A stretch of 19,209 nt of DNA. Source: a virus. Taxonomy: Duplodnaviria; Heunggongvirae; Uroviricota; Caudoviricetes. The number at the start of each line of letters is the position of its first letter. Position 1 is the first letter of the stretch. Below the pieces are notes generated by a model, which saw only the letters and a program-made list of their open reading frames with translations, was not told the origin of the DNA and did not search any database. Location: positions 69,215-88,423 of IMG/VR virus record IMGVR_UViG_3300032327_000093; one strand, 5' to 3'. Positions 4,882 through 15,952 of this stretch are shown here, piece by piece. Position numbers and translations under genes: made by a program.

Positions 4882-5725
4882 ATCAAACATAATGACAACT
4901 ATGCAAACGCAGATGAAAAATCTCGCAAAAAATAGTACCTTACCTAAAGTGCAAGTTACTACTCAACCAATCTCTTCCTCACAAAATCATCTGCATACTC
5001 TTTTAGGAATTAATAGTACTACATCTTTTGATGATTTATATAATACTGAATATGTTAAAAAATATGAAGTATTTGAGACCACAGAAGATATACTAGGATT
5101 GAGTGTTACTTGGCACAGAATGCGTCCATTAATCAATGCATCAACTAGTCCCAATATTAGACCAACTAAACTTACTGATAGTATCTTGTTCAAAGAAATA
5201 ATTCAGGAAGATAGAGATAAGGCTGAACGCATCCGTGACTATTACAGCAAGAAACTTATGGTTATAACTTTGCGTGAACAAAGGATAAGTAAATTCAGGA
5301 AAGATTTATCTACCTTCATTCATGGTGATAGTAAAGTAGTCAAAGAAGAATTGATGCCAATAATTTATCGTCTACCTGAATTCTATGATTATGATATAGA
5401 ATTTGATGATATGGTTAGAGAATTGAATACACGATTTGAATTTCCTGAAAACACAAAAGCATGGTCAGGTACAAAAACTCTAAAGCCTATCAAAAAATTT
5501 CTAGTCAAACATAGAATAAACAAATTCTCAGAATACTGGTTGAAAGATGATGACAACAAACTATGCAAGATTGAAGTTCCAATCGACAACAAACTAAATC
5601 ATCTCTGGGAACACTTTTTTGAGCAAGATTCTATTCCCCTAGTAGGGCTTTTTAAGCATATGGAACGTGACGGAATTAGCTATTTTCACCTAAAAAACTG
5701 GGAAATAGACTTTACCAAAACTTGA
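4874..5725 (+). CDS. Hypothetical protein (about 283 aa)
   Basis: In-frame TTG 4874 overlaps the uvsY stop (alternative ATG 4892). The ORF-track start at 4805 lies deep inside uvsY and is unlikely. The stop TGA lies in the -35 box of repeat 1. Confidence 0.7.
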   Translation: MAKSNIMTTMQTQMKNLAKNSTLPKVQVTTQPISSSQNHLHTLLGINSTTSFDDLYNTEYVKKYEVFETTEDILGLSVTWHRMRPLINASTSPNIRPTKLTDSILFKEIIQEDRDKAERIRDYYSKKLMVITLREQRISKFRKDLSTFIHGDSKVVKEELMPIIYRLPEFYDYDIEFDDMVRELNTRFEFPENTKAWSGTKTLKPIKKFLVKHRINKFSEYWLKDDDNKLCKIEVPIDNKLNHLWEHFFEQDSIPLVGLFKHMERDGISYFHLKNWEIDFTKT

Positions 5726-5750
5726 CATTAAATGGTTTTGGGTCTATAAT
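5722..5750 (+). promoter_or_regulatory. Repeat promoter 1 (sigma70 consensus)
   Basis: TTGACA-17-TATAAT followed by AAGGAG and ATG 5781. Confidence 0.9.
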
Positions 5751-5780
5751 AGAGGCTTAGATTGATTAAAGGAGCTAGTT

Positions 5781-6053
5781 ATGACACAAGTTTACGACCG
5801 TTTGACAGAGCAGGAAAAGCGTGAAGTTCGTATGTACGGTGTTACCGTTGCAGGTATGCGTGAAAGTATCGAATCCAGCATCACTTTCAAGTTTTCTGGT
5901 CCTGCTATGATTGCTGCTAGTTTGATGAGTGATGCACAGGAAATGATTAATACCGAGTACGGTGAAGTTGACTATATGCGGGCCGAAGATGCCCGTCAAT
6001 GTCTGAATCGTGCTAAGTGGGTCCTGTTTGAATATGTTATGAAAAAGGATTGA
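5781..6053 (+). CDS. Cassette hypothetical protein (90 aa)
   Basis: Own promoter and RBS; the stop lies inside repeat 2. Confidence 0.8.
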   Translation: MTQVYDRLTEQEKREVRMYGVTVAGMRESIESSITFKFSGPAMIAASLMSDAQEMINTEYGEVDYMRAEDARQCLNRAKWVLFEYVMKKD

Positions 6054-6078
6054 CAACAAATGGTTTCGGGTCTATAAT
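6050..6078 (+). promoter_or_regulatory. Repeat promoter 2
   Basis: TTGACA-ACAAATGGTTTCGGGTC-TATAAT, then CAGGAG and ATG 6112. Confidence 0.9.
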
Positions 6079-6111
6079 GTAATCTTAGACAGTTAAGCAC
6101 AGGAGAACATC

Positions 6112-6447
6112 ATGGATGTACATAAATTGACTAAGACTGAACTATGGGACCTAATTGACAGTTTCGGCCCACAAAATAAAGTTGTGGTTGGAAGTGATAC
6201 TGTGAATATCACCAATCAATATCACAATGTAACATATCCCATACGAACGGAACAGGACCTGTCTCAATTAGATAGGATTGTGGAACTTGATAGTAGCATT
6301 TACCGCAGAAAATACAATCTGGTATTCTGTTATAACGAAGGCCAGCGTGAGCATTTTTTCATCGAGCCTGCGGGACTGAAAAATCACAAAACAAAGTTGG
6401 AAAAATTGCTATACAAAATGTTGGAAAAATTGCTATACAAAAATTGA
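6112..6447 (+). CDS. Cassette hypothetical protein (111 aa) with a duplicated C-terminal octapeptide
   Basis: RBS CAGGAG; ends LEKLLYKM-LEKLLYKN; the stop lies inside repeat 3. Confidence 0.75.
   Translation: MDVHKLTKTELWDLIDSFGPQNKVVVGSDTVNITNQYHNVTYPIRTEQDLSQLDRIVELDSSIYRRKYNLVFCYNEGQREHFFIEPAGLKNHKTKLEKLLYKMLEKLLYKN
6396..6442 (+). repeat. 24-bp-period tandem duplication
   Basis: GTTGGAAAAATTGCTATACAAAA is identical at 6396-6418 and 6420-6442. Confidence 0.9.
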
Positions 6448-6472
6448 CATTAAATGGTTTTGGGTATATAAT
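6444..6472 (+). promoter_or_regulatory. Repeat promoter 3
   Basis: TTGACA-17-TATAAT; 48 nt identical to repeat 4. Confidence 0.9.
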
Positions 6473-6502
6473 CTAGTCTTAGATTGATTAAAGGAGCACA
6501 AA

Positions 6503-6889
6503 ATGGGATACAGTGATTGGCAAGCATCGGCAAAGATAGAGGACATGGTTGGCAAGGTGTTCACTTCGGTAACACAAGATTGTGATGTGATGGTGTTCGA
6601 GAACGCAACCGAACGCTTTGTGTTCTTCCACTACCAAGACTGTTGCGAAAGTGTGTCCATCGAGGACATCTGCGGTGACCTGCAGGACTTGGTGGGAGAA
6701 CCTTTGTTGATCGCTGAGGAAGTTTCAGGTGAGACTCCTGTAGATTTCAACGAAATGGACCATGAGAGTGTGACTTGGACCTTCTACAAGTTCGCTACCC
6801 GCAAGGGCTATGTGGATGTTCGTTGGTTGGGCGAGTCTAACGGCTACTACTCAGAAGGTGTAAGCCTGGGTCGTGAGTTGGTTGCTTGA
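6503..6889 (+). CDS. Widespread phage hypothetical family (H.QDCCE.V.IEDI.GDL ... TWTFYK ... G.SNGYYSE motifs)
   Basis: The motif pattern is recognisable as a common phage DUF (from memory DUF7448-like, not searched); RBS AAGGAG. Confidence 0.75.
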   Translation: MGYSDWQASAKIEDMVGKVFTSVTQDCDVMVFENATERFVFFHYQDCCESVSIEDICGDLQDLVGEPLLIAEEVSGETPVDFNEMDHESVTWTFYKFATRKGYVDVRWLGESNGYYSEGVSLGRELVA

Positions 6890-6914
6890 CATTAAATGGT
6901 TTTGGGTATATAAT
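6886..6914 (+). promoter_or_regulatory. Repeat promoter 4
   Basis: TTGACA-17-TATAAT, then CGGAG and ATG 6944. Confidence 0.9.
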
Positions 6915-6943
6915 CTAGTCTTAGATTGATTAACGGAGCAAAT

Positions 6944-7318
6944 ATGTCTGAATTCACTACTTGGGAACAAATGTCTAAACTGGAACAGGCGCAAGCCATC
7001 TTCTGGGATATGTACAAGGATGCCTACGGTGTTCGCCCGCGCGGTATGGATACATCCGCTTGGGACGAGGCTACCTTTGAAGCCGAGTTAAACTACCTGC
7101 AGGACTTGATTGCCAAGAACGAGCAAGAGCGCAAGATCGCCGAACACGAGGCTGCACATGCCTTTGAAATGCGAGTGCAGAGCATCATAGACTGCGGTGC
7201 TCATAATCGTGCTATGGCCCTGCGTTGGATTCACGAGGCAGAAGGTTCTAATGGTGATGACGAGTATCTTTGCTACTTGGTTGGATTGCCCTATGCTTAT
7301 TTCAAGAAGGTTGCATAA
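6944..7318 (+). CDS. Conserved T4-like phage hypothetical protein (D.YKDAYGVRPR motif)
   Basis: ATG 6944 sits behind the GGAG RBS; the ORF-track TTG 6926 lies inside the repeat leader. Confidence 0.8.
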   Translation: MSEFTTWEQMSKLEQAQAIFWDMYKDAYGVRPRGMDTSAWDEATFEAELNYLQDLIAKNEQERKIAEHEAAHAFEMRVQSIIDCGAHNRAMALRWIHEAEGSNGDDEYLCYLVGLPYAYFKKVA

Positions 7319-7599
7319 TGAACACATATAATATACACGATGATCCAGCTGCATTTTATGACGAGAAGTACATCGGCAAGGTGCTGATGCTGCACCCGGC
7401 CGAGTGTGTGTTTGAACTAGACGCACCTCGGAAGATTATGCAACGGTTGTCGGTTAGACCTATAACGGAGTGGCACATGGCCGAGCATGGTGATGAATTC
7501 AGAGAATGCTGGCATCAGAGCGAAATGTATTGTCCGCATGAAGGCATTGATAGACTGGCCGAGTGTGGTGTAAAAAGTTTAGATTGGGAATTAGCATAA
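7318..7599 (+). CDS. Hypothetical protein (93 aa)
   Basis: TAATG overlap with the upstream gene; in frame with the track ORF 7270-7599. Confidence 0.65.
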   Translation: MNTYNIHDDPAAFYDEKYIGKVLMLHPAECVFELDAPRKIMQRLSVRPITEWHMAEHGDEFRECWHQSEMYCPHEGIDRLAECGVKSLDWELA

Positions 7600-7730
7600 T
7601 GTATAGAGTTGGCGATTTGATTTTTCGTACGCTGGAAGCACTTTGCATCTATGTCGCAGAACATAGGGGTGAAGATTTTACAATTGAATGGATTACTGAG
7701 TATACACTCGGTGACCCGATGGAGCAATAA
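7599..7730 (+). CDS. Small hypothetical protein, 43 aa, below the ORF-track cut-off (MYRVGDLIFRTLEALCIYVAEHRGEDFTIEWITEYTLGDPMEQ)
   Basis: TAATG overlap at 7597-7601; exactly fills the gap to the next start; its 3' end supplies the GGAG RBS for ATG 7732. Confidence 0.6.
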   Translation: MYRVGDLIFRTLEALCIYVAEHRGEDFTIEWITEYTLGDPMEQ

Positions 7731-7731
7731 A

Positions 7732-7950
7732 ATGGTACGTAGTTTTAATTTTGATGTGGTACAGCGTGAAACCGCTGACGGTCACACACGGATAACTGAA
7801 GGCGCTTATTGGTACAACGAAGCACAAAAAATGGCTCGGAAGGGTACTGCTAAGTTGGTAATGAACAATAAGAGTTTTGCTGGTTACGGTGGATCCACTG
7901 ACGTTGGTTATACACGGTATAATTATACTGTGACTGAGGTCCTTGGTTGA
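7732..7950 (+). CDS. Hypothetical protein (72 aa)
   Basis: GGAG at 7721-7724 then ATG 7732; the stop lies inside repeat 5. Confidence 0.7.
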   Translation: MVRSFNFDVVQRETADGHTRITEGAYWYNEAQKMARKGTAKLVMNNKSFAGYGGSTDVGYTRYNYTVTEVLG

Positions 7951-7975
7951 CATTAAATGGTTTTGGGTATATAAT
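7947..7975 (+). promoter_or_regulatory. Repeat promoter 5
   Basis: TTGACA-17-TATAAT; 44 nt identical to repeat 7. Confidence 0.9.
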
Positions 7976-8008
7976 AGAGTCTTATTCAGTTAATTAAAGG
8001 ACTAGAAA

Positions 8009-8275
8009 ATGGCTAAAAAAATCTCTATCAAAGTTTTCGCAGACCCAGGTCATGCATGGGCCCGCTTCCCCAAAGCAAAGTTGGTGGCGCTTGGTATCGC
8101 CGATAAGATTAGTCCTTACAGCTACCAGAACGGCACCAATGCTTTCTTGGAAGAAGACTGCGACCTGTCATTACTGGTTCGTGCTCTCATTGAGCGTGGC
8201 TATGAGATTAAATTCAACGAAAGCCATGCTAATAAGCAAAGCAAAATCCGCAATTATTCTACATATCGGGCTTAA
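8009..8275 (+). CDS. Small phage/mobile-element protein with D-P-G-H-x-W and Y-LEED-C-D-type motifs
   Basis: RBS AAGGA; ADPGHAW and FLEEDCD motifs of a common uncharacterised family. Confidence 0.8.
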   Translation: MAKKISIKVFADPGHAWARFPKAKLVALGIADKISPYSYQNGTNAFLEEDCDLSLLVRALIERGYEIKFNESHANKQSKIRNYSTYRA

Positions 8276-8278
8276 TAT

Positions 8279-8467
8279 ATGAAAATGCGTAAACACAAGG
8301 TAAACAAAGTCCGATGCAGCCGTCAAGCCTGGGTGGATAATGGTGCATGGTCCTACTATAACCGCCGCTTCGAACTGAGCATCCTTAAGGTTCGGGCCGA
8401 GCGTGAAGCCTATATGAATGCCTGGCGTGAGTCTCAAATTCCAACTGAAGTTGTTCTACCGGCTTGA
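8279..8467 (+). CDS. Small basic hypothetical protein (62 aa)
   Basis: Fills the gap and its stop falls inside repeat 6 like the other cassettes; RBS is weak. Confidence 0.6.
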   Translation: MKMRKHKVNKVRCSRQAWVDNGAWSYYNRRFELSILKVRAEREAYMNAWRESQIPTEVVLPA

Positions 8468-8492
8468 CATTAAATGGATTTGGGTATATAAT
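8464..8492 (+). promoter_or_regulatory. Repeat promoter 6
   Basis: TTGACA-TTAAATGGATTTGGGTA-TATAAT. Confidence 0.9.
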
Positions 8493-8526
8493 ACATACTT
8501 AGACAGTTAATTAAAGGACTTAGAAA

Positions 8527-8721
8527 ATGACAAATTTTGCAATGTTTACTGACGCTGGTAATGATGCAGTTGGATCCATCGTAAAGTTGGCAATCAGTCA
8601 AAACTTGAGTTGGTCTGTTGTTCGAGGATTGCTCAAGGCCTTGGCTCAGGACGAGCGTTTTGAGGAAGCTACTGACACCTCTGTGCAGGAAGCAGTATAC
8701 AAGGCTTGCGATTTTAGTTGA
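8527..8721 (+). CDS. Cassette hypothetical protein (64 aa)
   Basis: RBS AAGGA; the stop lies inside repeat 7. Confidence 0.75.
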   Translation: MTNFAMFTDAGNDAVGSIVKLAISQNLSWSVVRGLLKALAQDERFEEATDTSVQEAVYKACDFS

Positions 8722-8746
8722 CATTAAATGGTTTTGGGTATATAAT
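8718..8746 (+). promoter_or_regulatory. Repeat promoter 7
   Basis: TTGACA-17-TATAAT, then CAGGAG and ATG 8780. Confidence 0.9.
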
Positions 8747-8779
8747 AGAGTCTTATTCAGTCAACAACAGGAGTTTCAG

Positions 8780-8998
8780 ATGGGCTACAAAGTTATCGCA
8801 GACAAACATCAGATGGATGAAATGCGTACCAAGTATGGTCCTCGCAAAGGTCTAGAAGGTCCTTTCAACTTCACTGGCCGTGTGTTGTATTACGACACCG
8901 AAGAAGGTCAGTACTATGACCCCACTACCGACTTCTATGTTGAGCAGGCTGATATGGATATCATCCATCAGCGTATCGTGGATATTCTGAAGGCTTGA
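8780..8998 (+). CDS. Cassette hypothetical protein (72 aa; YGPRKGLEGPF ... YYDP.TDFY)
   Basis: ATG 8780 sits behind CAGGAG; the track start at 8618 runs through the upstream gene and promoter. Confidence 0.8.
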   Translation: MGYKVIADKHQMDEMRTKYGPRKGLEGPFNFTGRVLYYDTEEGQYYDPTTDFYVEQADMDIIHQRIVDILKA

Positions 8999-9023
8999 CA
9001 ATAAATGGGTAATAGTATATAAT
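8995..9023 (+). promoter_or_regulatory. Repeat promoter 8 (most diverged spacer)
   Basis: TTGACA-ATAAATGGGTAATAGTA-TATAAT, then CAGGAG and ATG 9058. Confidence 0.85.
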
Positions 9024-12196: not shown

Positions 12197-12789
12197 TGGC
12201 AACAAGAAAAGCAGCAGTACCAGTTGATGAGAAATTTGACAAACAAGATTTAGACTTGTTTGAGGTCCTTGCCGCAATGGATAAGAAAGACTATGGCTTC
12301 TATGATAGGTTATCAATAGAACAACAAAAGAAGTTTGTGCCATTCACGATGATACAATGGATGAGTGCAATCAAAGCATCAGGTGACCTACAAGGATATT
12401 ATTTGATGAGTGTAGAATATCATGCAAACAAATATCTATTCAACGAGAATGTGCAGAAGCATCCTAAACTACAATGGTTGATGTTATGTGCTAGTAGCCC
12501 TAATTTAGGTAAACAGTTTCATCAATGGATACCTAACATAAGCCCTAAGGTAAGCAAACTACAAGCGCCTGCAAAGATAAAAGATATAAGAGAATACTAT
12601 AAGAAGATATATCCCAAAGCACATGAAGATGATATAACGGCTGTAAGTCAAGCGTTTGTAGATAGTCAAAAGCGTAAACTTAGATTAGCAGAATTATTCC
12701 CCAACATGAAAATAACAGACATTGAGACACTAAATGAAACTATCACCGACGAACAACTTAAGCAATATGAAAGAGACCTCGGTAATTGA
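12196..12789 (+). CDS. gp62-like clamp-loader small subunit
   Basis: TAATG overlap gives the start at 12196. ANKY ... KHPKLQWLML ... KQFHQWI resembles the gp62 N...HPKLQY..L...KRF..W pattern; replication context. Confidence 0.6.
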   Translation: MATRKAAVPVDEKFDKQDLDLFEVLAAMDKKDYGFYDRLSIEQQKKFVPFTMIQWMSAIKASGDLQGYYLMSVEYHANKYLFNENVQKHPKLQWLMLCASSPNLGKQFHQWIPNISPKVSKLQAPAKIKDIREYYKKIYPKAHEDDITAVSQAFVDSQKRKLRLAELFPNMKITDIETLNETITDEQLKQYERDLGN

Positions 12790-13468
12790 ACCAGTAAAGT
12801 TTGGATGTGAATTCTGTAAGCGTGAGTTCTTAAAAGAAAGCACGATAACTAAACACATCTGTGAGAACAAGCGTAGGTGGCTAGATAAAGACTTGCGTGG
12901 TAATCAGTTTGGCTTTCAGACTTGGGTACAGTTTTATAAAAAGAATACATCTAGTCGCAAGCATCGTACCTATGAAGAATTCATTCGTAGCGCATACTAT
13001 ACAGCATTCACTAAGTTTGGTAACTATTGTCTTAATATCAATGCTATCAATATCCCAAGATATGTTGAATGGTTATTAAAGAATCAAGTTAAGATTGACA
13101 ATTGGTGTAGTGATAGTACCTATACCAAATATCTTATCGAATATCTACGACATGAGGATCCATTTGACGCAATACATCGTAGCGTAGAGACTTGTATCAA
13201 ATTAGCTGAGGATGCAAACATTCAACCACATGACATGTTGCGTTATGGTAATGCGAACAAACTATGTTATGCTATCACAACGGGCAAGATAAGTCCATGG
13301 ATGTTGTATCAGAGCGACAGTGGTACCCGTTTTCTAGATACATTAAATGAAGGTCATGTGCGACTTGTAATAGATTATATTGACCCAGAACAATGGGCAA
13401 TAAAGTTCAAGAGGGATACAGAACTCACAAAACGAATCAGTAGTACACTAAAAGAAGCTGGTTATTGA
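12767..13468 (+). CDS. Conserved protein with an N-terminal C-x2-C-x12-H-x-C zinc finger
   Basis: CEFCKREFLKESTITKHIC; ATG 12767 overlaps the end of the gp62-like gene. Confidence 0.75.
   Translation: MKETSVIEPVKFGCEFCKREFLKESTITKHICENKRRWLDKDLRGNQFGFQTWVQFYKKNTSSRKHRTYEEFIRSAYYTAFTKFGNYCLNINAINIPRYVEWLLKNQVKIDNWCSDSTYTKYLIEYLRHEDPFDAIHRSVETCIKLAEDANIQPHDMLRYGNANKLCYAITTGKISPWMLYQSDSGTRFLDTLNEGHVRLVIDYIDPEQWAIKFKRDTELTKRISSTLKEAGY
13415..13468 (+). repeat. Copy A of a diverged 54-nt duplication (DTELTKRISSTLKEAGY*)
   Basis: Aligns codon-for-codon with 14233-14286; 38/54 nt and 12/17 aa identical (hand count). Confidence 0.85.
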
Positions 13469-13529
13469 TAAATAAAAGTGTAGTCCACGAGCCTCTAACC
13501 TCTCCGACTACTCTAACGCTATCAAGGAG
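13467..13529 (+). promoter_or_regulatory. Endonuclease leader: late-type GATAAATA, stem-loop and AAGGAG RBS
   Basis: GATAAATA 13467-13474; GTAGTC (13480-13485) pairs with GACTAC (13506-13511); AAGGAG 13524-13529. Confidence 0.6.
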
Positions 13530-13536
13530 CATCAGC

Positions 13537-14181
13537 ATGAGTATTTATTCAAGAAAAAACTCTCCCATTGGATTTTATGTCTACGCATATGTTAGGTCAG
13601 ATGATACCCCATATTATATTGGAAAAGGCCATAATCAACGAGCATGGAAACACACAAAAAATGATGTTATAAAAACACCAGCGGACCACAACAATATAAT
13701 CATTTTAGAAACAAGGTTAACTTCTTTGGGAGCAGCCGCAATTGAGAGAAGAATGATTCGTTGGTATGGTAGAAAAGATTTATGTACTGGTATACTAAGA
13801 AATAGAACTGACGGCGGAGAAGGAGTTTTAGGTGCTATACGCACTGCAAAATGGAACTCCAATATTGGAAAAGCAAATTTAGGTAAGAAAAGAACTTTAG
13901 AAATAGGAGCTCGTCATAGTATAGTAATGACAGGTCGTAAACAATCAGATGAAACTCGCAAAAAGAGATCCGATTCTCTTACTGGTAGAACAAGGACAAC
14001 TGAAGAAAAAAATAGCATTAGCTTTGGTAAAAAAGGAAAACCACAAACGACAGAGCATATTGCAAATAGAAAAGCAGCACTTTTGGGTAAAAAACAGCAG
14101 GTGGTAATATGTCCACACTGCGGCACGAGTGGGGGAATAGTTAATATGAAACGATGGCATTTCACCAATTGCAACCATTAG
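13537..14181 (+). CDS. Free-standing GIY-YIG homing endonuclease with NUMOD3-like repeats and a C-terminal CPHC zinc ribbon
   Basis: FYVYAY...PYYIGKG...R catalytic module, LRNRTDGGEG, repeated G-K/R-x-x-S/T-x-E-x-K/R modules, CPHCG...NMKRWHF..C; ATG 13537 sits behind AAGGAG. Confidence 0.88.
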   Translation: MSIYSRKNSPIGFYVYAYVRSDDTPYYIGKGHNQRAWKHTKNDVIKTPADHNNIIILETRLTSLGAAAIERRMIRWYGRKDLCTGILRNRTDGGEGVLGAIRTAKWNSNIGKANLGKKRTLEIGARHSIVMTGRKQSDETRKKRSDSLTGRTRTTEEKNSISFGKKGKPQTTEHIANRKAALLGKKQQVVICPHCGTSGGIVNMKRWHFTNCNH

Positions 14182-14183
14182 CA

Positions 14184-14212
14184 TTGACATTAATCTATTT
14201 TGATGATATAAT
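14184..14212 (+). promoter_or_regulatory. Consensus sigma70 promoter downstream of the endonuclease
   Basis: TTGACA-17-TATAAT with extended TG; the first 10 nt (TTGACATTAA) match the array repeat. Confidence 0.85.
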
Positions 14213-14232
14213 TAGGTACACCTTATATACAA

Positions 14233-14286
14233 GATACTGATGTTACAAAACAAATCAAAGACACCCTCAAAGAAGCAGGCTACTAA
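14233..14286 (+). pseudogene. Copy B: stranded 3' end of the zinc-finger gene (DTDVTKQIKDTLKEAGY*)
   Basis: Codon-aligned to 13415-13468; has no start of its own; overlapped in another frame by the ORF starting at 14240. Confidence 0.8.
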
Positions 14287-14467
14287 GGTTCGTGTACCTT
14301 GGGCAAAAGGTGAAACTTCATATAAGTGGAATGATGTATGTGGCTATGCGATAGAACACTTTGGCTTGCCCGGTGAAAGATATTACACGCATGCCACAGA
14401 AGATTATATGGATTTTTATTTCTATGACGAGCGTGATGCTATACATTTTAATTTGAGTTGCTTATGA
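14240..14467 (+). CDS. LRW-family small paralogue 1
   Basis: AIEHFG ... FYFYDERDAIHFNLSCL. Confidence 0.7.
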   Translation: MLQNKSKTPSKKQATKVRVPWAKGETSYKWNDVCGYAIEHFGLPGERYYTHATEDYMDFYFYDERDAIHFNLSCL

Positions 14468-14733
14468 CACACAAGATTCGGTACGAACGTCCTAGGTCTG
14501 GGATAACATGGAACATGACAACAGAGGAACCCGTATTGATAATTGATTACGGTAACCGCAAAGTTCGTCTGACTCATAGCACCCCGTCGGCTGAGATTCT
14601 CAGCCGTAAGATGCAGGATCAAATCAAATGGTGCGAAGATACTTTCCGTTCTGGGACACATAGCTATTCCAACGGTAGATGGTTTTTCAAACGACCACAG
14701 GATCTAACCATGTTCTTGTTGAGGTGGCTATGA
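14464..14733 (+). CDS. LRW-family small paralogue 2
   Basis: ATGA overlap; IKWCEDTF ... WFFKRPQDLTMFLLRWL. Confidence 0.75.
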   Translation: MTHKIRYERPRSGITWNMTTEEPVLIIDYGNRKVRLTHSTPSAEILSRKMQDQIKWCEDTFRSGTHSYSNGRWFFKRPQDLTMFLLRWL

Positions 14734-15011
14734 TTAAGAAACGCGCCATGAATGAAGCTAGATGGGTGTCTGAATTAACCACCATGAAAAGACTTGAAAC
14801 TGGTTATGCTGGAAGTCAACCTAAATATCCCTATTGGGTCAAACCATACAACTACTCTTATAAAGAGTGGGATGACATGAGAGATTGGATGATAGATACC
14901 ATGGGATATAGTGATTGGGTGGTGAAACATGCTCGTTGGGTTGGTAGTGATAGAAAGTATTGGTTCCGTGATGAATCAGATAGAACCTTTTTCATATTGA
15001 GGTGGTCATGA
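14730..15011 (+). CDS. LRW-family small paralogue 3
   Basis: ATGA overlap; RDWMIDTMG ... YWFRDESDRTFFILRWS. Confidence 0.75.
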   Translation: MIKKRAMNEARWVSELTTMKRLETGYAGSQPKYPYWVKPYNYSYKEWDDMRDWMIDTMGYSDWVVKHARWVGSDRKYWFRDESDRTFFILRWS

Positions 15012-15456: not shown

Positions 15457-15722
15457 GTAATATTTCAAAAGATTTTCAAGATTATGATGACGATGATCCA
15501 CAAGTTCATTTCAGGAAGAATCGTTGGAAGTACTGGAACCTGCTTAAGTTAGTAAGAACTGAATTCATGGTAGATAGAAAAGAGTTTGATGCTTATCTTT
15601 TTGAATCATATATCCAAGATAAGTATGGCATAAAGATGAACATGCTTGATGGAAACATTACTGATGGTTACGAGATTGTAGATGAACATAAGTATTTGAT
15701 ATTCTTGTTGAGGTTTCAATGA
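15453..15722 (+). CDS. LRW-family small paralogue 6 (divergent)
   Basis: GTGA overlap (alternative ATG 15447); YIQDKYG ... EIVDEHKYLIFLLRFQ. Confidence 0.7.
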   Translation: MSNISKDFQDYDDDDPQVHFRKNRWKYWNLLKLVRTEFMVDRKEFDAYLFESYIQDKYGIKMNMLDGNITDGYEIVDEHKYLIFLLRFQ

Positions 15723-15952
15723 GCGATACAGATTGGGAAAACATCAAGTCAGGATGGTATGAACTAGTTATCAAACTTGGTGAACATGACACAACATTTT
15801 CACAAAGGAGAGAGATAGTAGATTGGATAATCACAAACATACAAAAACCAGATAGACATTGTGTATATACTTGGGTATATGATGAGGTTTGGTTATTCAA
15901 AGTCAAATTTAGATACGAGCGTGATTATATTTTAGCAAGATTAAGATGGTAA
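15719..15952 (+). CDS. LRW-family small paralogue 7
   Basis: ATGA overlap; IVDWIITNI ... VKFRYERDYILARLRW. Confidence 0.75.
   Translation: MSDTDWENIKSGWYELVIKLGEHDTTFSQRREIVDWIITNIQKPDRHCVYTWVYDEVWLFKVKFRYERDYILARLRW

Follow-up and report, generated by a model that had tools for sequence, protein, structure and literature searches.

A probable homing-endonuclease cassette carrying a spare gene end at the overlap of two phage genes

Why does the end of a phage gene occur twice, once on either side of an endonuclease gene? The question is raised by the final 19.2 kb of an 88-kb IMG/VR viral record (G000), a stretch of 19,209 nucleotides (nt) that we refer to as the window, where a gene for a protein with a C2H2-type zinc finger (ZnF) is followed by a free-standing gene for a GIY-YIG homing endonuclease and then by an array of small F-x-L-R-W paralogues (Table 1). 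The ZnF protein ends in ...KFKRDTELTKRISSTLKEAGY, and a preliminary description of the window had noticed that a second version of this end stands beyond the endonuclease gene. We could confirm the repeat: the copy that completes the ZnF gene (copy A) and the one that lies 765 nt downstream (copy B) agree at 12 of 17 amino acids and at 38 of 54 nt, copy B is in the same frame as the ZnF gene and matches the native alleles of relatives, and local alignment of the ZnF tail with the DNA 3' of the endonuclease gene reaches a score of 66 (z = 10.9, 200 shuffles). In none of about 60 other homologous endonuclease loci did the tail of the upstream gene reach z = 3 against the downstream DNA, in a crude scan that took the longest upstream ORF in any frame. 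A repeat arisen by chance is also excluded because the segment 14233-14467, copy B with the DNA downstream of it, corresponds at 97% identity to the true ZnF 3' terminus of L002, a relative without the endonuclease gene, and to the gene that follows there. We argue here that the segment from about 13357 to 14232 is probably a mobile homing-endonuclease cassette that carries a spare ZnF end and is placed at the point where the ZnF gene and the next gene overlap.

Table 1. Features of the locus in window coordinates, and the nucleotide identity of three further cassette-bearing contigs (L163-L165) to the window.
Feature	Position	Strand	Identity, L163-L165 to window	Basis or remark
Hybrid C2H2-type ZnF gene	12767..13468	+		Open reading frame (ORF) list; PHROG 11058, E 5e-58
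Left flank	13229-13334		81%	
22-nt block, probable left homology arm	13335..13356	+	100%	Left crossovers fall inside it or just beyond
Patch, cassette-borne ZnF codons (...VRLVIDYIDPEQWAIKFKR) upstream of the duplication	13357..13414	+	93-95%	Identity comparison
Cassette-specific substitution stretch, predicted recognition and cleavage region of the empty allele and predicted source of immunity	13360..13382	+		Inferred
Copy A, substitute ZnF end, 17 codons and stop (DTELTKRISSTLKEAGY, stop)	13415..13468	+	94-96%	Carried by the cassette
Endonuclease leader (68 nt)	13469..13536	+	94-97%	Conserved before many homologous endonuclease genes
TAAATA box	13469-13474	+		In the leader
Hairpin 1 (13480-13511)	outer stem 13480-13485/13506-13511, inner stem 13489-13491/13502-13504	+		Covariation, folding
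Hairpin 2	13518-13520/13528-13530	+		Overlaps the ribosome-binding site
Ribosome-binding site AAGGAG	13524-13529	+		
Free-standing GIY-YIG homing endonuclease gene, 214 amino acids	13537..14181	+	96.6-96.9%	Motifs, PHROGs, fold
Cassette trailer with outward sigma-70 promoter and short untranslated stretch	14182..14232	+	92-96%	Right junction 14232/14233
Outward promoter	TTGACA 14184-14189, TG-TATAAT 14204-14212	+		12/12 match, 17-nt spacer, TG extension
Copy B, native ZnF 3' end (DTDVTKQIKDTLKEAGY, stop)	14233..14286	+	72-89%	Retained as the 5' end of the next gene
First small paralogue (75 amino acids) of the F-x-L-R-W array	14240..14467	+		ATG 14240 inside copy B
Right flank			64-69%	

The state of the site without the cassette can be read from IMG/VR relatives of the ZnF gene, of which the best 80 of 180 were taken (64-93% amino acid identity). 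All 80 lack the endonuclease gene, and in most of them the next gene overlaps the ZnF end. It had been expected that empty-site relatives would run straight into the first paralogue with an end resembling copy B, and this was found: the 80 empty alleles read KFKR-D...AGY and stop, or with their variants ...(K/R)F(K/H/N)(R/K)-(D/N/E)...(A/G)GY, and the nearest among them (L001-L011, about 92% amino acid identity) end in DTDV... or DMDV...KDT(L/I)KEAGY, like copy B and not like copy A. A sliding comparison along the ZnF gene of the window gave about 95% nucleotide identity to L001-L010 through position 13359 and 63-80% from there on. The imported tract had been thought to begin at 13415 with the duplication itself; the drop in identity places its start about 55 nt further left, at 13357-13360, the gene being native to about 13357 and its final 36-37 codons derived from the cassette. 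Immediately before this point lies the block 13335-13356, identical save at 13354 in the window, in three other alleles with the cassette and in nine representative empty alleles.

These three other filled alleles (L163, L164 and L165) were found by scanning metagenome contigs with the endonuclease protein; in all of them the gene occupies the same site and the protein is 91-97% identical to that of the window. The site is polymorphic for presence and absence of the cassette at one fixed position (80 empty and 4 filled alleles), with co-conversion of the flanking sequence. The right junction falls on the same base pair in the four filled alleles, and the copy A peptide is constant among them with the sole exception of an S-to-G replacement in L163. 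Copy B is in each case the native end of its own background, so that for example the copy B of L163 (DAVLTKRVKDTLSEAGY, stop) is identical to the end of the empty allele L012, to which the left flank of L163 also corresponds at 97.7%; the flanks of the window correspond to L003 and L002 at 96-97%. In other words, a foreign in-frame C-terminus stands upstream of the endonuclease gene and the native one downstream, the inserted end travels with the endonuclease and the native end tracks the host lineage. Because the cassette is 92-97% identical between contigs while the surrounding genome differs by 20-35%, the substitute end, the leader, the endonuclease gene and the promoter move together as one unit of about 875 nt. 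That the element brings its own C-terminus and dispenses with splicing had been proposed from the window alone, and three further alleles sharing copy A, each with its own copy B, bear it out. The same proposal called the substitute end recoded; the substitution holds, and recoding is indistinguishable from an origin in an unsampled, diverged lineage. Among the 80 empty alleles none is a donor for the substitute end, the ZnF part of the cassette (13357-13468) being at most 79% identical to any of them apart from L013 and L014, which bear a cassette-type patch and are discussed below. The window belongs to a metagenome-assembled viral contig, and a chimeric contig might in theory have created the repeat; this can be given practically no weight, as four contigs with different dataset prefixes have the same architecture within different flanks.

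The reason for keeping the old end was sought in the start of the next gene, which lies inside it, and the empty alleles agree with this closely. Of 77 empty alleles scored, 59 have the first ATG of the downstream paralogue, which is in the +1 frame, at one of two distances upstream of the ZnF stop codon, 50 nt in 35 loci and 44 nt in 24. The part of the ZnF end that is retained as copy B begins 51 nt upstream of this stop codon, so that the two starts are 1 and 7 nt within it and the junction is located 1 nt upstream of the commonest start of the next gene. The paralogue of the window has a start of the -44 type, and copy B of L163 and L164 begins with G-ATG. Judging from these positions, the duplicated length equals the overlap of the two genes, as if the cassette had entered at the boundary of the downstream gene and supplied the 17 codons that the ZnF gene would have lost. 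Once the cassette is present, a stop at 14209-14211 with no later start codon leaves copy B untranslated in the ZnF frame, and it serves the next gene alone. A different arrangement was observed in L037 and L044-L047, where the ZnF gene has no overlap with a paralogue and is directly followed by a homologue of the window ORF 15719-15952, which implies that about six small F-x-L-R-W paralogues have been deleted; the ZnF stop region of these alleles uses codons freed from the overlap (GCT GGA TAT TAA), like copy A.

Copy A itself ends in the codons GCT GGT TAT TGA, where the overlapping alleles, constrained by the +1 frame, have GCA GGC TAC TAA. This difference could also be accommodated by a local duplication, in which the endonuclease gene entered between the two genes, the 54-nt target was duplicated in place and copy A diverged once it was free of the overlap, with no import at all: its codons are released from the +1-frame constraint just as in the non-overlapping L037 group, and such a process may describe the very first event in an unsampled founder lineage. 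We consider this explanation very unlikely, because divergence begins 55 nt upstream of the duplication, at 13360, and because the patch and copy A keep an identity of 93-96% between backgrounds that agree at 64-81% in their flanks; at least three of the four genomes must therefore have received the end together with the cassette. The rest of the ZnF gene is, moreover, about 95% identical to that of the nearest relatives, and a drop to 70% generated in place is implausible. For the founder lineage, the first insertion was presumably illegitimate.

If the insert were removed by splicing, as a group I intron or an intein, the ZnF gene would be joined to copy B and would recover its native C-terminus, and many GIY-YIG endonucleases of phages are encoded in introns. 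We regard splicing as highly improbable here. A search of the + strand of 13300-14400 against Rfam gave no match to any family at E <= 1, introns included, and no intron core RNA was found there; the non-coding part of the insert amounts to 68 + 51 nt, and these 119 nt are too few for an intron core. Group I introns end in G, and the base before 14233 is A. Copy A completes the reading frame with a stop of its own, directly after which the series TGA-TAA-ATA-A, followed by TAG, stops all three frames, and intein motifs are absent.

The endonuclease has an N-terminal nuclease domain, followed by what may be separate DNA-binding modules, about five helical repeats resembling NUMOD3 and a putative C-terminal zinc ribbon of the form CxxC...H..C. 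An alignment of 25 homologues shows no variation at Y14 and Y16 (FYVYAY), Y26, G29 (YYIGKG), R35, E70 and N89, Y27 and I28 being kept in at least 90% of the rows, and many homologues have in common the C-terminal motif CPHC...RWHF.NC. PHROGs 314 and 655, both annotated as homing endonuclease, match the protein (PHROG 655 over residues 104-213), and tblastn matches include annotated Seg-like and intron endonucleases. The AlphaFold (AF2) model has a predicted local distance difference test (pLDDT) score of 82.5 and shows a beta-beta-alpha-beta-alpha core, followed by five evenly spaced helices and the zinc ribbon; the modelled strands 13-19, 25-32 and 54-61 and the helix 63-78 have pLDDT values of about 90, the five regular helices occupy residues 104-182 and the ribbon 189-211. 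When this model was compared with the PDB by Foldseek, ranks 1 to 11 were all GIY-YIG domains, among them the N-terminal domain of UvrC and PD-T4-3 (probabilities 0.63-0.97, mostly 0.87 or higher). The tyrosine motifs, the arginine, the glutamate, the asparagine and, as far as the model goes, the core fold are those of a GIY-YIG catalytic domain. The search of the protein against Pfam and NCBIfam gave as its sole match a sub-threshold NUMOD3 (17.6 bits, cut-off 20.4), and phmmer against the PDB found weak matches (E 0.1). Between filled alleles 10-13 codons of the gene differ synonymously and 6-9 non-synonymously, and the ratio of non-synonymous to synonymous differences per site (pN/pS) of 0.14-0.25 indicates that the protein has been under purifying selection while spreading.

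At the downstream edge of the cassette stands a promoter directed outwards. Perfect (12/12) sigma-70 promoters occur nine times in the window, always on the + strand, eight of them at 5722-9023 and the ninth at 14184. In the eight resident early promoters the 17-nt spacer and the 5' leader are nearly the same, and the possibility that the promoter at 14184 is a copy of one of them was rejected because its spacer and downstream sequence differ. By our own arithmetic the chance of a 12/12 match at fixed spacing is about 4^-12 per position, or about 2e-6 over some 30 positions, and the promoter bases are identical in the four filled alleles. Empty alleles have no promoter at this junction, because there the paralogue starts inside the ZnF gene, and it is plausible that the promoter at the cassette edge replaces a co-transcription or translational coupling that was lost upon insertion. 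The trailer as a whole (14182-14232) resembles no sequence in any of the endonuclease loci compared. Within its -35 box the triplet TGA (14185-14187) is in frame with the endonuclease ORF, two codons past the TAG stop.

Where does the enzyme cut? The bases peculiar to the cassette give an indication. Six bases at 13360-13369, where the 80 relatives are otherwise 88-97% unanimous, are shared by no more than 5% of them and turn the conserved codons K-M into R-L; further cassette-specific bases are found at 13367, 13372 and 13381-13382. Cassette-type sequence begins at 13358-13359 in the window and at 13335-13353 in L163 and in L013 and L014. The latter two, which belong to the group L015-L023, are the only empty alleles (2 of 80) with a cassette-type patch and no endonuclease gene: they have cassette-type bases from 13354 to 13382 (L014) or to about 13402 (L013) and then return to the sequence of their own group. 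Such patches would be left if a break was mended with a filled donor as template and both ends resolved within ZnF homology (short-patch repair), and equally if copy A recombined with copy B and the cassette was lost. The intersection of all converted tracts, including these two, is 13360-13382, and because it includes the cluster of private substitutions we predict recognition and cleavage in this 23-nt stretch, 30-55 nt upstream of the insertion point. The enzyme I-TevI cuts 23-25 nt from its own insertion site, which the predicted spacing recalls. A cut at 13412-13417 had been proposed before, and the conversion tracts favour the stretch further upstream; it should be added that trimming would in any case take a 3' end with 30% mismatches back as far as the conserved block, so that a cut at 13412-13417 would stay compatible with the data.

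We infer from these sequences an active enzyme, the position of its cut, immunity of the filled alleles and use of the promoter, and the process may be pictured as follows. No intergenic space is available at the insertion point, and for this reason the cassette would carry its own ZnF 3' end, bringing a 55-nt diverged patch and the last 17 codons with their stop, copy B would stay downstream because it encodes the N-terminus of the next gene, start codon included, and the promoter of the cassette could now drive that gene. In a co-infecting relative the endonuclease would cut cassette-free ZnF alleles, most likely within 13360-13382, and the break would be repaired from the filled allele, the left crossover falling in 13335-13359 and the right end being shortened to 14233, the first base with homology. 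The ZnF stretch of the cassette, which differs at the predicted site, would hence be immune.

The same distribution of alleles might arise if the endonuclease were inactive or irrelevant and the cassette a passive passenger of ordinary homologous recombination, with arms formed by the block 13335-13356 and the downstream paralogue. Mosaicism is evident in these phages, the identity profiles along the ZnF gene varying between relatives, and L165 has lost 33 nt in frame from the nuclease domain (11 codons, equivalent to window positions 13660-13692, between the GIY-YIG strands 2 and 3). We nevertheless judge a passive passenger unlikely, since a pN/pS of 0.14-0.25 means that the protein is kept by selection, the catalytic residues are all intact, the converted tracts including those of L013 and L014 all span the same 23 nt, as expected around a targeted break, and the right boundary falls on the first homologous base every time. 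The deletion in L165 may represent early decay of the endonuclease after fixation in one lineage.

Several observations weigh against the homing cassette as we describe it and should be considered together. Ordinary recombination could also give the sharp boundaries, by way of the conserved block. We know of only four filled alleles, and as the cassettes of L164 and L165 are identical they represent about three independent backgrounds; the donor lineage of the substitute end is unsampled, so that the first insertion event is not reconstructable. The Pfam GIY-YIG model PF01541 does not match the 214-amino acid protein and the Foldseek hits have weak E-values (0.07-0.24) and template-modelling (TM) scores on the target of 0.2-0.6, with the consequence that the assignment to the family rests on the motifs, the fold ranking and the PHROGs. 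No Shine-Dalgarno sequence follows the outward promoter, and a near-consensus promoter after the endonuclease gene was found in only 2 of 61 homologous loci.

The leader of the endonuclease gene, in turn, is not confined to this cassette. It is better conserved than the protein and recurs before endonuclease genes whose products are 40-50% identical (leader loci of about 70 nt in L082-L161 and L243-L362; for example L084:2935-3005, L093:2925-2997 and, on the minus strand, L013:2757-2827). Three sequence elements, the TAAATA box, a CTCTAA box and the CAGC before the ATG, are invariant or nearly so among 34 distinct leaders. Hairpin 1 is 95.3% paired in the 34 leaders, 9 of its 10 pairs having compensatory (two-sided) changes, and its covariation score is 0.67, to be compared with 0.20 in shuffled alignments (0/500) and with 0.03-0.09 when the partners are slid; hairpin 2 is weaker and covaries by eye (GCT/AGC, AGT/ACT, GATT/AATC, ACATT/AATGT). 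One stem variant has at least 120 exact matches in IMG/VR, and these precede GIY-YIG, HNH (PF01844) and HNH_3 (PF13392) ORFs and one DUF559/Vsr-like (PF04480) ORF. Taken together the alignments indicate that the leader is a covarying hairpin element common to endonuclease genes of at least three nuclease superfamilies on contigs of uncultured phages; none of it was matched in the Rfam search mentioned above. If functional, such a shared structured leader would be a general control element for the homing endonuclease genes of phages. The contig of L013, one of the two empty alleles with a ZnF patch, also has an HNH endonuclease gene (L013:1984-2751, minus strand, 255 amino acids). This gene is in the opposite orientation, is flanked by the helicase gene and the homologue of window ORF 11696, and has a leader that agrees with the leader of the window at 94% over 54 nt.

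Of the features listed between the two copies in the preliminary description the positions are correct, and the label of late-type promoter, which draws on the analogy with T4 only, could not be verified. The motif TATAAATA occurs 3 times on the + strand of the 88-kb record, where 8 are expected, and is thus not enriched; together with ATAAATA and TAAATA it is rarer than base composition predicts on both strands of the whole record, from which it appears that a T4-type late promoter is not an obvious feature of the genes of this phage itself. Expression of I-TevI-III, segB and mobE of T4 is governed by late promoters and by hairpins that mask the ribosome-binding site (PMC2988022). The PeSL (promoter early stem-loop) cassettes of T4-type phages (PMC2839356, PMC4122927) are also short modules of promoter and hairpin that flank mobile genes and possibly serve as recombination arms, and may be compared with both the leader and the eight early promoters of the window; they differ from the leader, in which a TAAATA box and a ribosome-binding site are combined with two covarying hairpins and which is tied to endonuclease genes of several nuclease families and not to orphan early genes.

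The closest parallel to the exchange of a gene end is found in fungal mitochondria. Swaps of a C-terminus by mobile endonuclease ORFs (mORFs) were described in the atp6 gene of Allomyces macrogynus (Paquin et al. 1994, cited in PMC3630166) and then in Rhizopus atp9 and Mortierella cox2 (PMC3630166; PMC7487136), and Glomus sp. has mORFs in atp6, atp9, cox2 and nad3, with a C-terminal duplication downstream of the inserted ORF (PMC3630166). The mitochondrial genome of A. macrogynus includes a free-standing GIY-YIG endonuclease gene (PMC7487136) and the element in Glomus atp9 is of the GIY-YIG type (PMC3630166). As in our locus, an endonuclease ORF is located in the 3' part of the host gene, with a foreign in-frame end upstream and the native end downstream, and the divergence is similar: in Glomus atp6 the inserted C-terminus is 63.5% identical in nucleotides and the native one 91% identical to close relatives (PMC3630166), the corresponding values being about 70% and 97% here. 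The phage locus differs in not residing in an organelle and in having an endonuclease that is not fused in frame to the host gene; its duplication is the overlap of two genes, the native end being the functional 5' end of the next gene and not a pseudogene, and its cassette has two additional parts, the outward sigma-70 promoter and the conserved structured leader. By its mode of action the cassette can be grouped with the mORFs, a functional class; by descent it does not belong to the mitochondrial lineages. The principle is that of the fungal mitochondria, and what is new is the phage setting, the functional duplication that resolves an overlap, the outward promoter and the shared leader.

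Compensating devices that save the function of the invaded gene are known in phages as well, mobA of T4 for example going with the bypass element of gene 60. In the nrdA gene of Aeromonas phage Aeh1 mobE produces 'genes-in-pieces' (PMC2988022). These two share with our locus an insertion into a coding region without an intron; the result there is a split protein or translational bypass, and here a protein in one piece by means of a substituted end. The Seg and Mob endonucleases of T4-type phages (SegF, SegG, SegB, MobE; PMC2988022) are, like ours, encoded by free-standing genes among conserved genes, with co-conversion of the flanks and a polymorphic, resistant target nearby, such as we predict for our locus. 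They have promoters for downstream genes in or beside the endonuclease gene (embedded in segG, segA, segE, mobB and mobC) and leaders with promoter and hairpin that control translation (PMC2988022), to which the outward promoter and the leader of the window may correspond. Their positions are intergenic or involve overlaps of a few bases, in contrast to the 51-nt gene overlap and spare gene end of our locus, and the string 'duplicat' is absent from the text of the T4 homing review PMC2988022. In a literature search of limited reach we found no phage precedent for a duplicated or substituted gene end beside an endonuclease gene.

With a little less than even confidence, we would propose that this is the first phage 'overlap splitter' that swaps a C-terminus, made of spare end, endonuclease and promoter, and that its leader is a widespread, undescribed structured regulatory RNA shared by at least three unrelated nuclease superfamilies. 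If this is true, the leader implies a common, portable module of expression control for selfish nucleases. With a spare end and a promoter a selfish endonuclease could colonise a site that has no intergenic space, unspliced and sparing both neighbours, and the 'intronless homing' of phages would be linked to the C-terminal swaps of fungal mitochondria, which suggests that the same solution arose independently. The 80 empty and 4 filled alleles with mapped boundaries form a natural experiment that predicts a 23-nt target. For annotation, short duplicated gene ends beside endonuclease genes can be regarded as the traces that such cassettes leave, and a phylogeny may be distorted where a gene has a hybrid end.

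The nature of the source phage bears on these comparisons, as a T4-like context had initially been assumed. The ZnF protein of the window is nearest to hypothetical proteins of jumbo phages (PA5oct, 121Q/PBECO4, Atu_ph07 and others; about 30-33% identity) and the phage contigs of the relatives reach 264 kb; from these similarities the source phage is of jumbo type and not T4-like. A megablast search of 12700-14800 against deposited phage genomes gave no match, so that the lineage is known from metagenomes only. The ZnF gene has two candidate start codons, 12734 and 12767, and the terminal (A/G)GY of its protein is kept in all 80 metagenomic relatives. The protein (window 12785-13468; PHROG 11058, function unknown) is encoded next to the helicase gene across jumbo phages, at about 30% identity, and the hosts of the jumbo phages with a ZnF homologue in this position include Pseudomonas, Escherichia, Klebsiella, Agrobacterium, Sinorhizobium, Vibrio and others.

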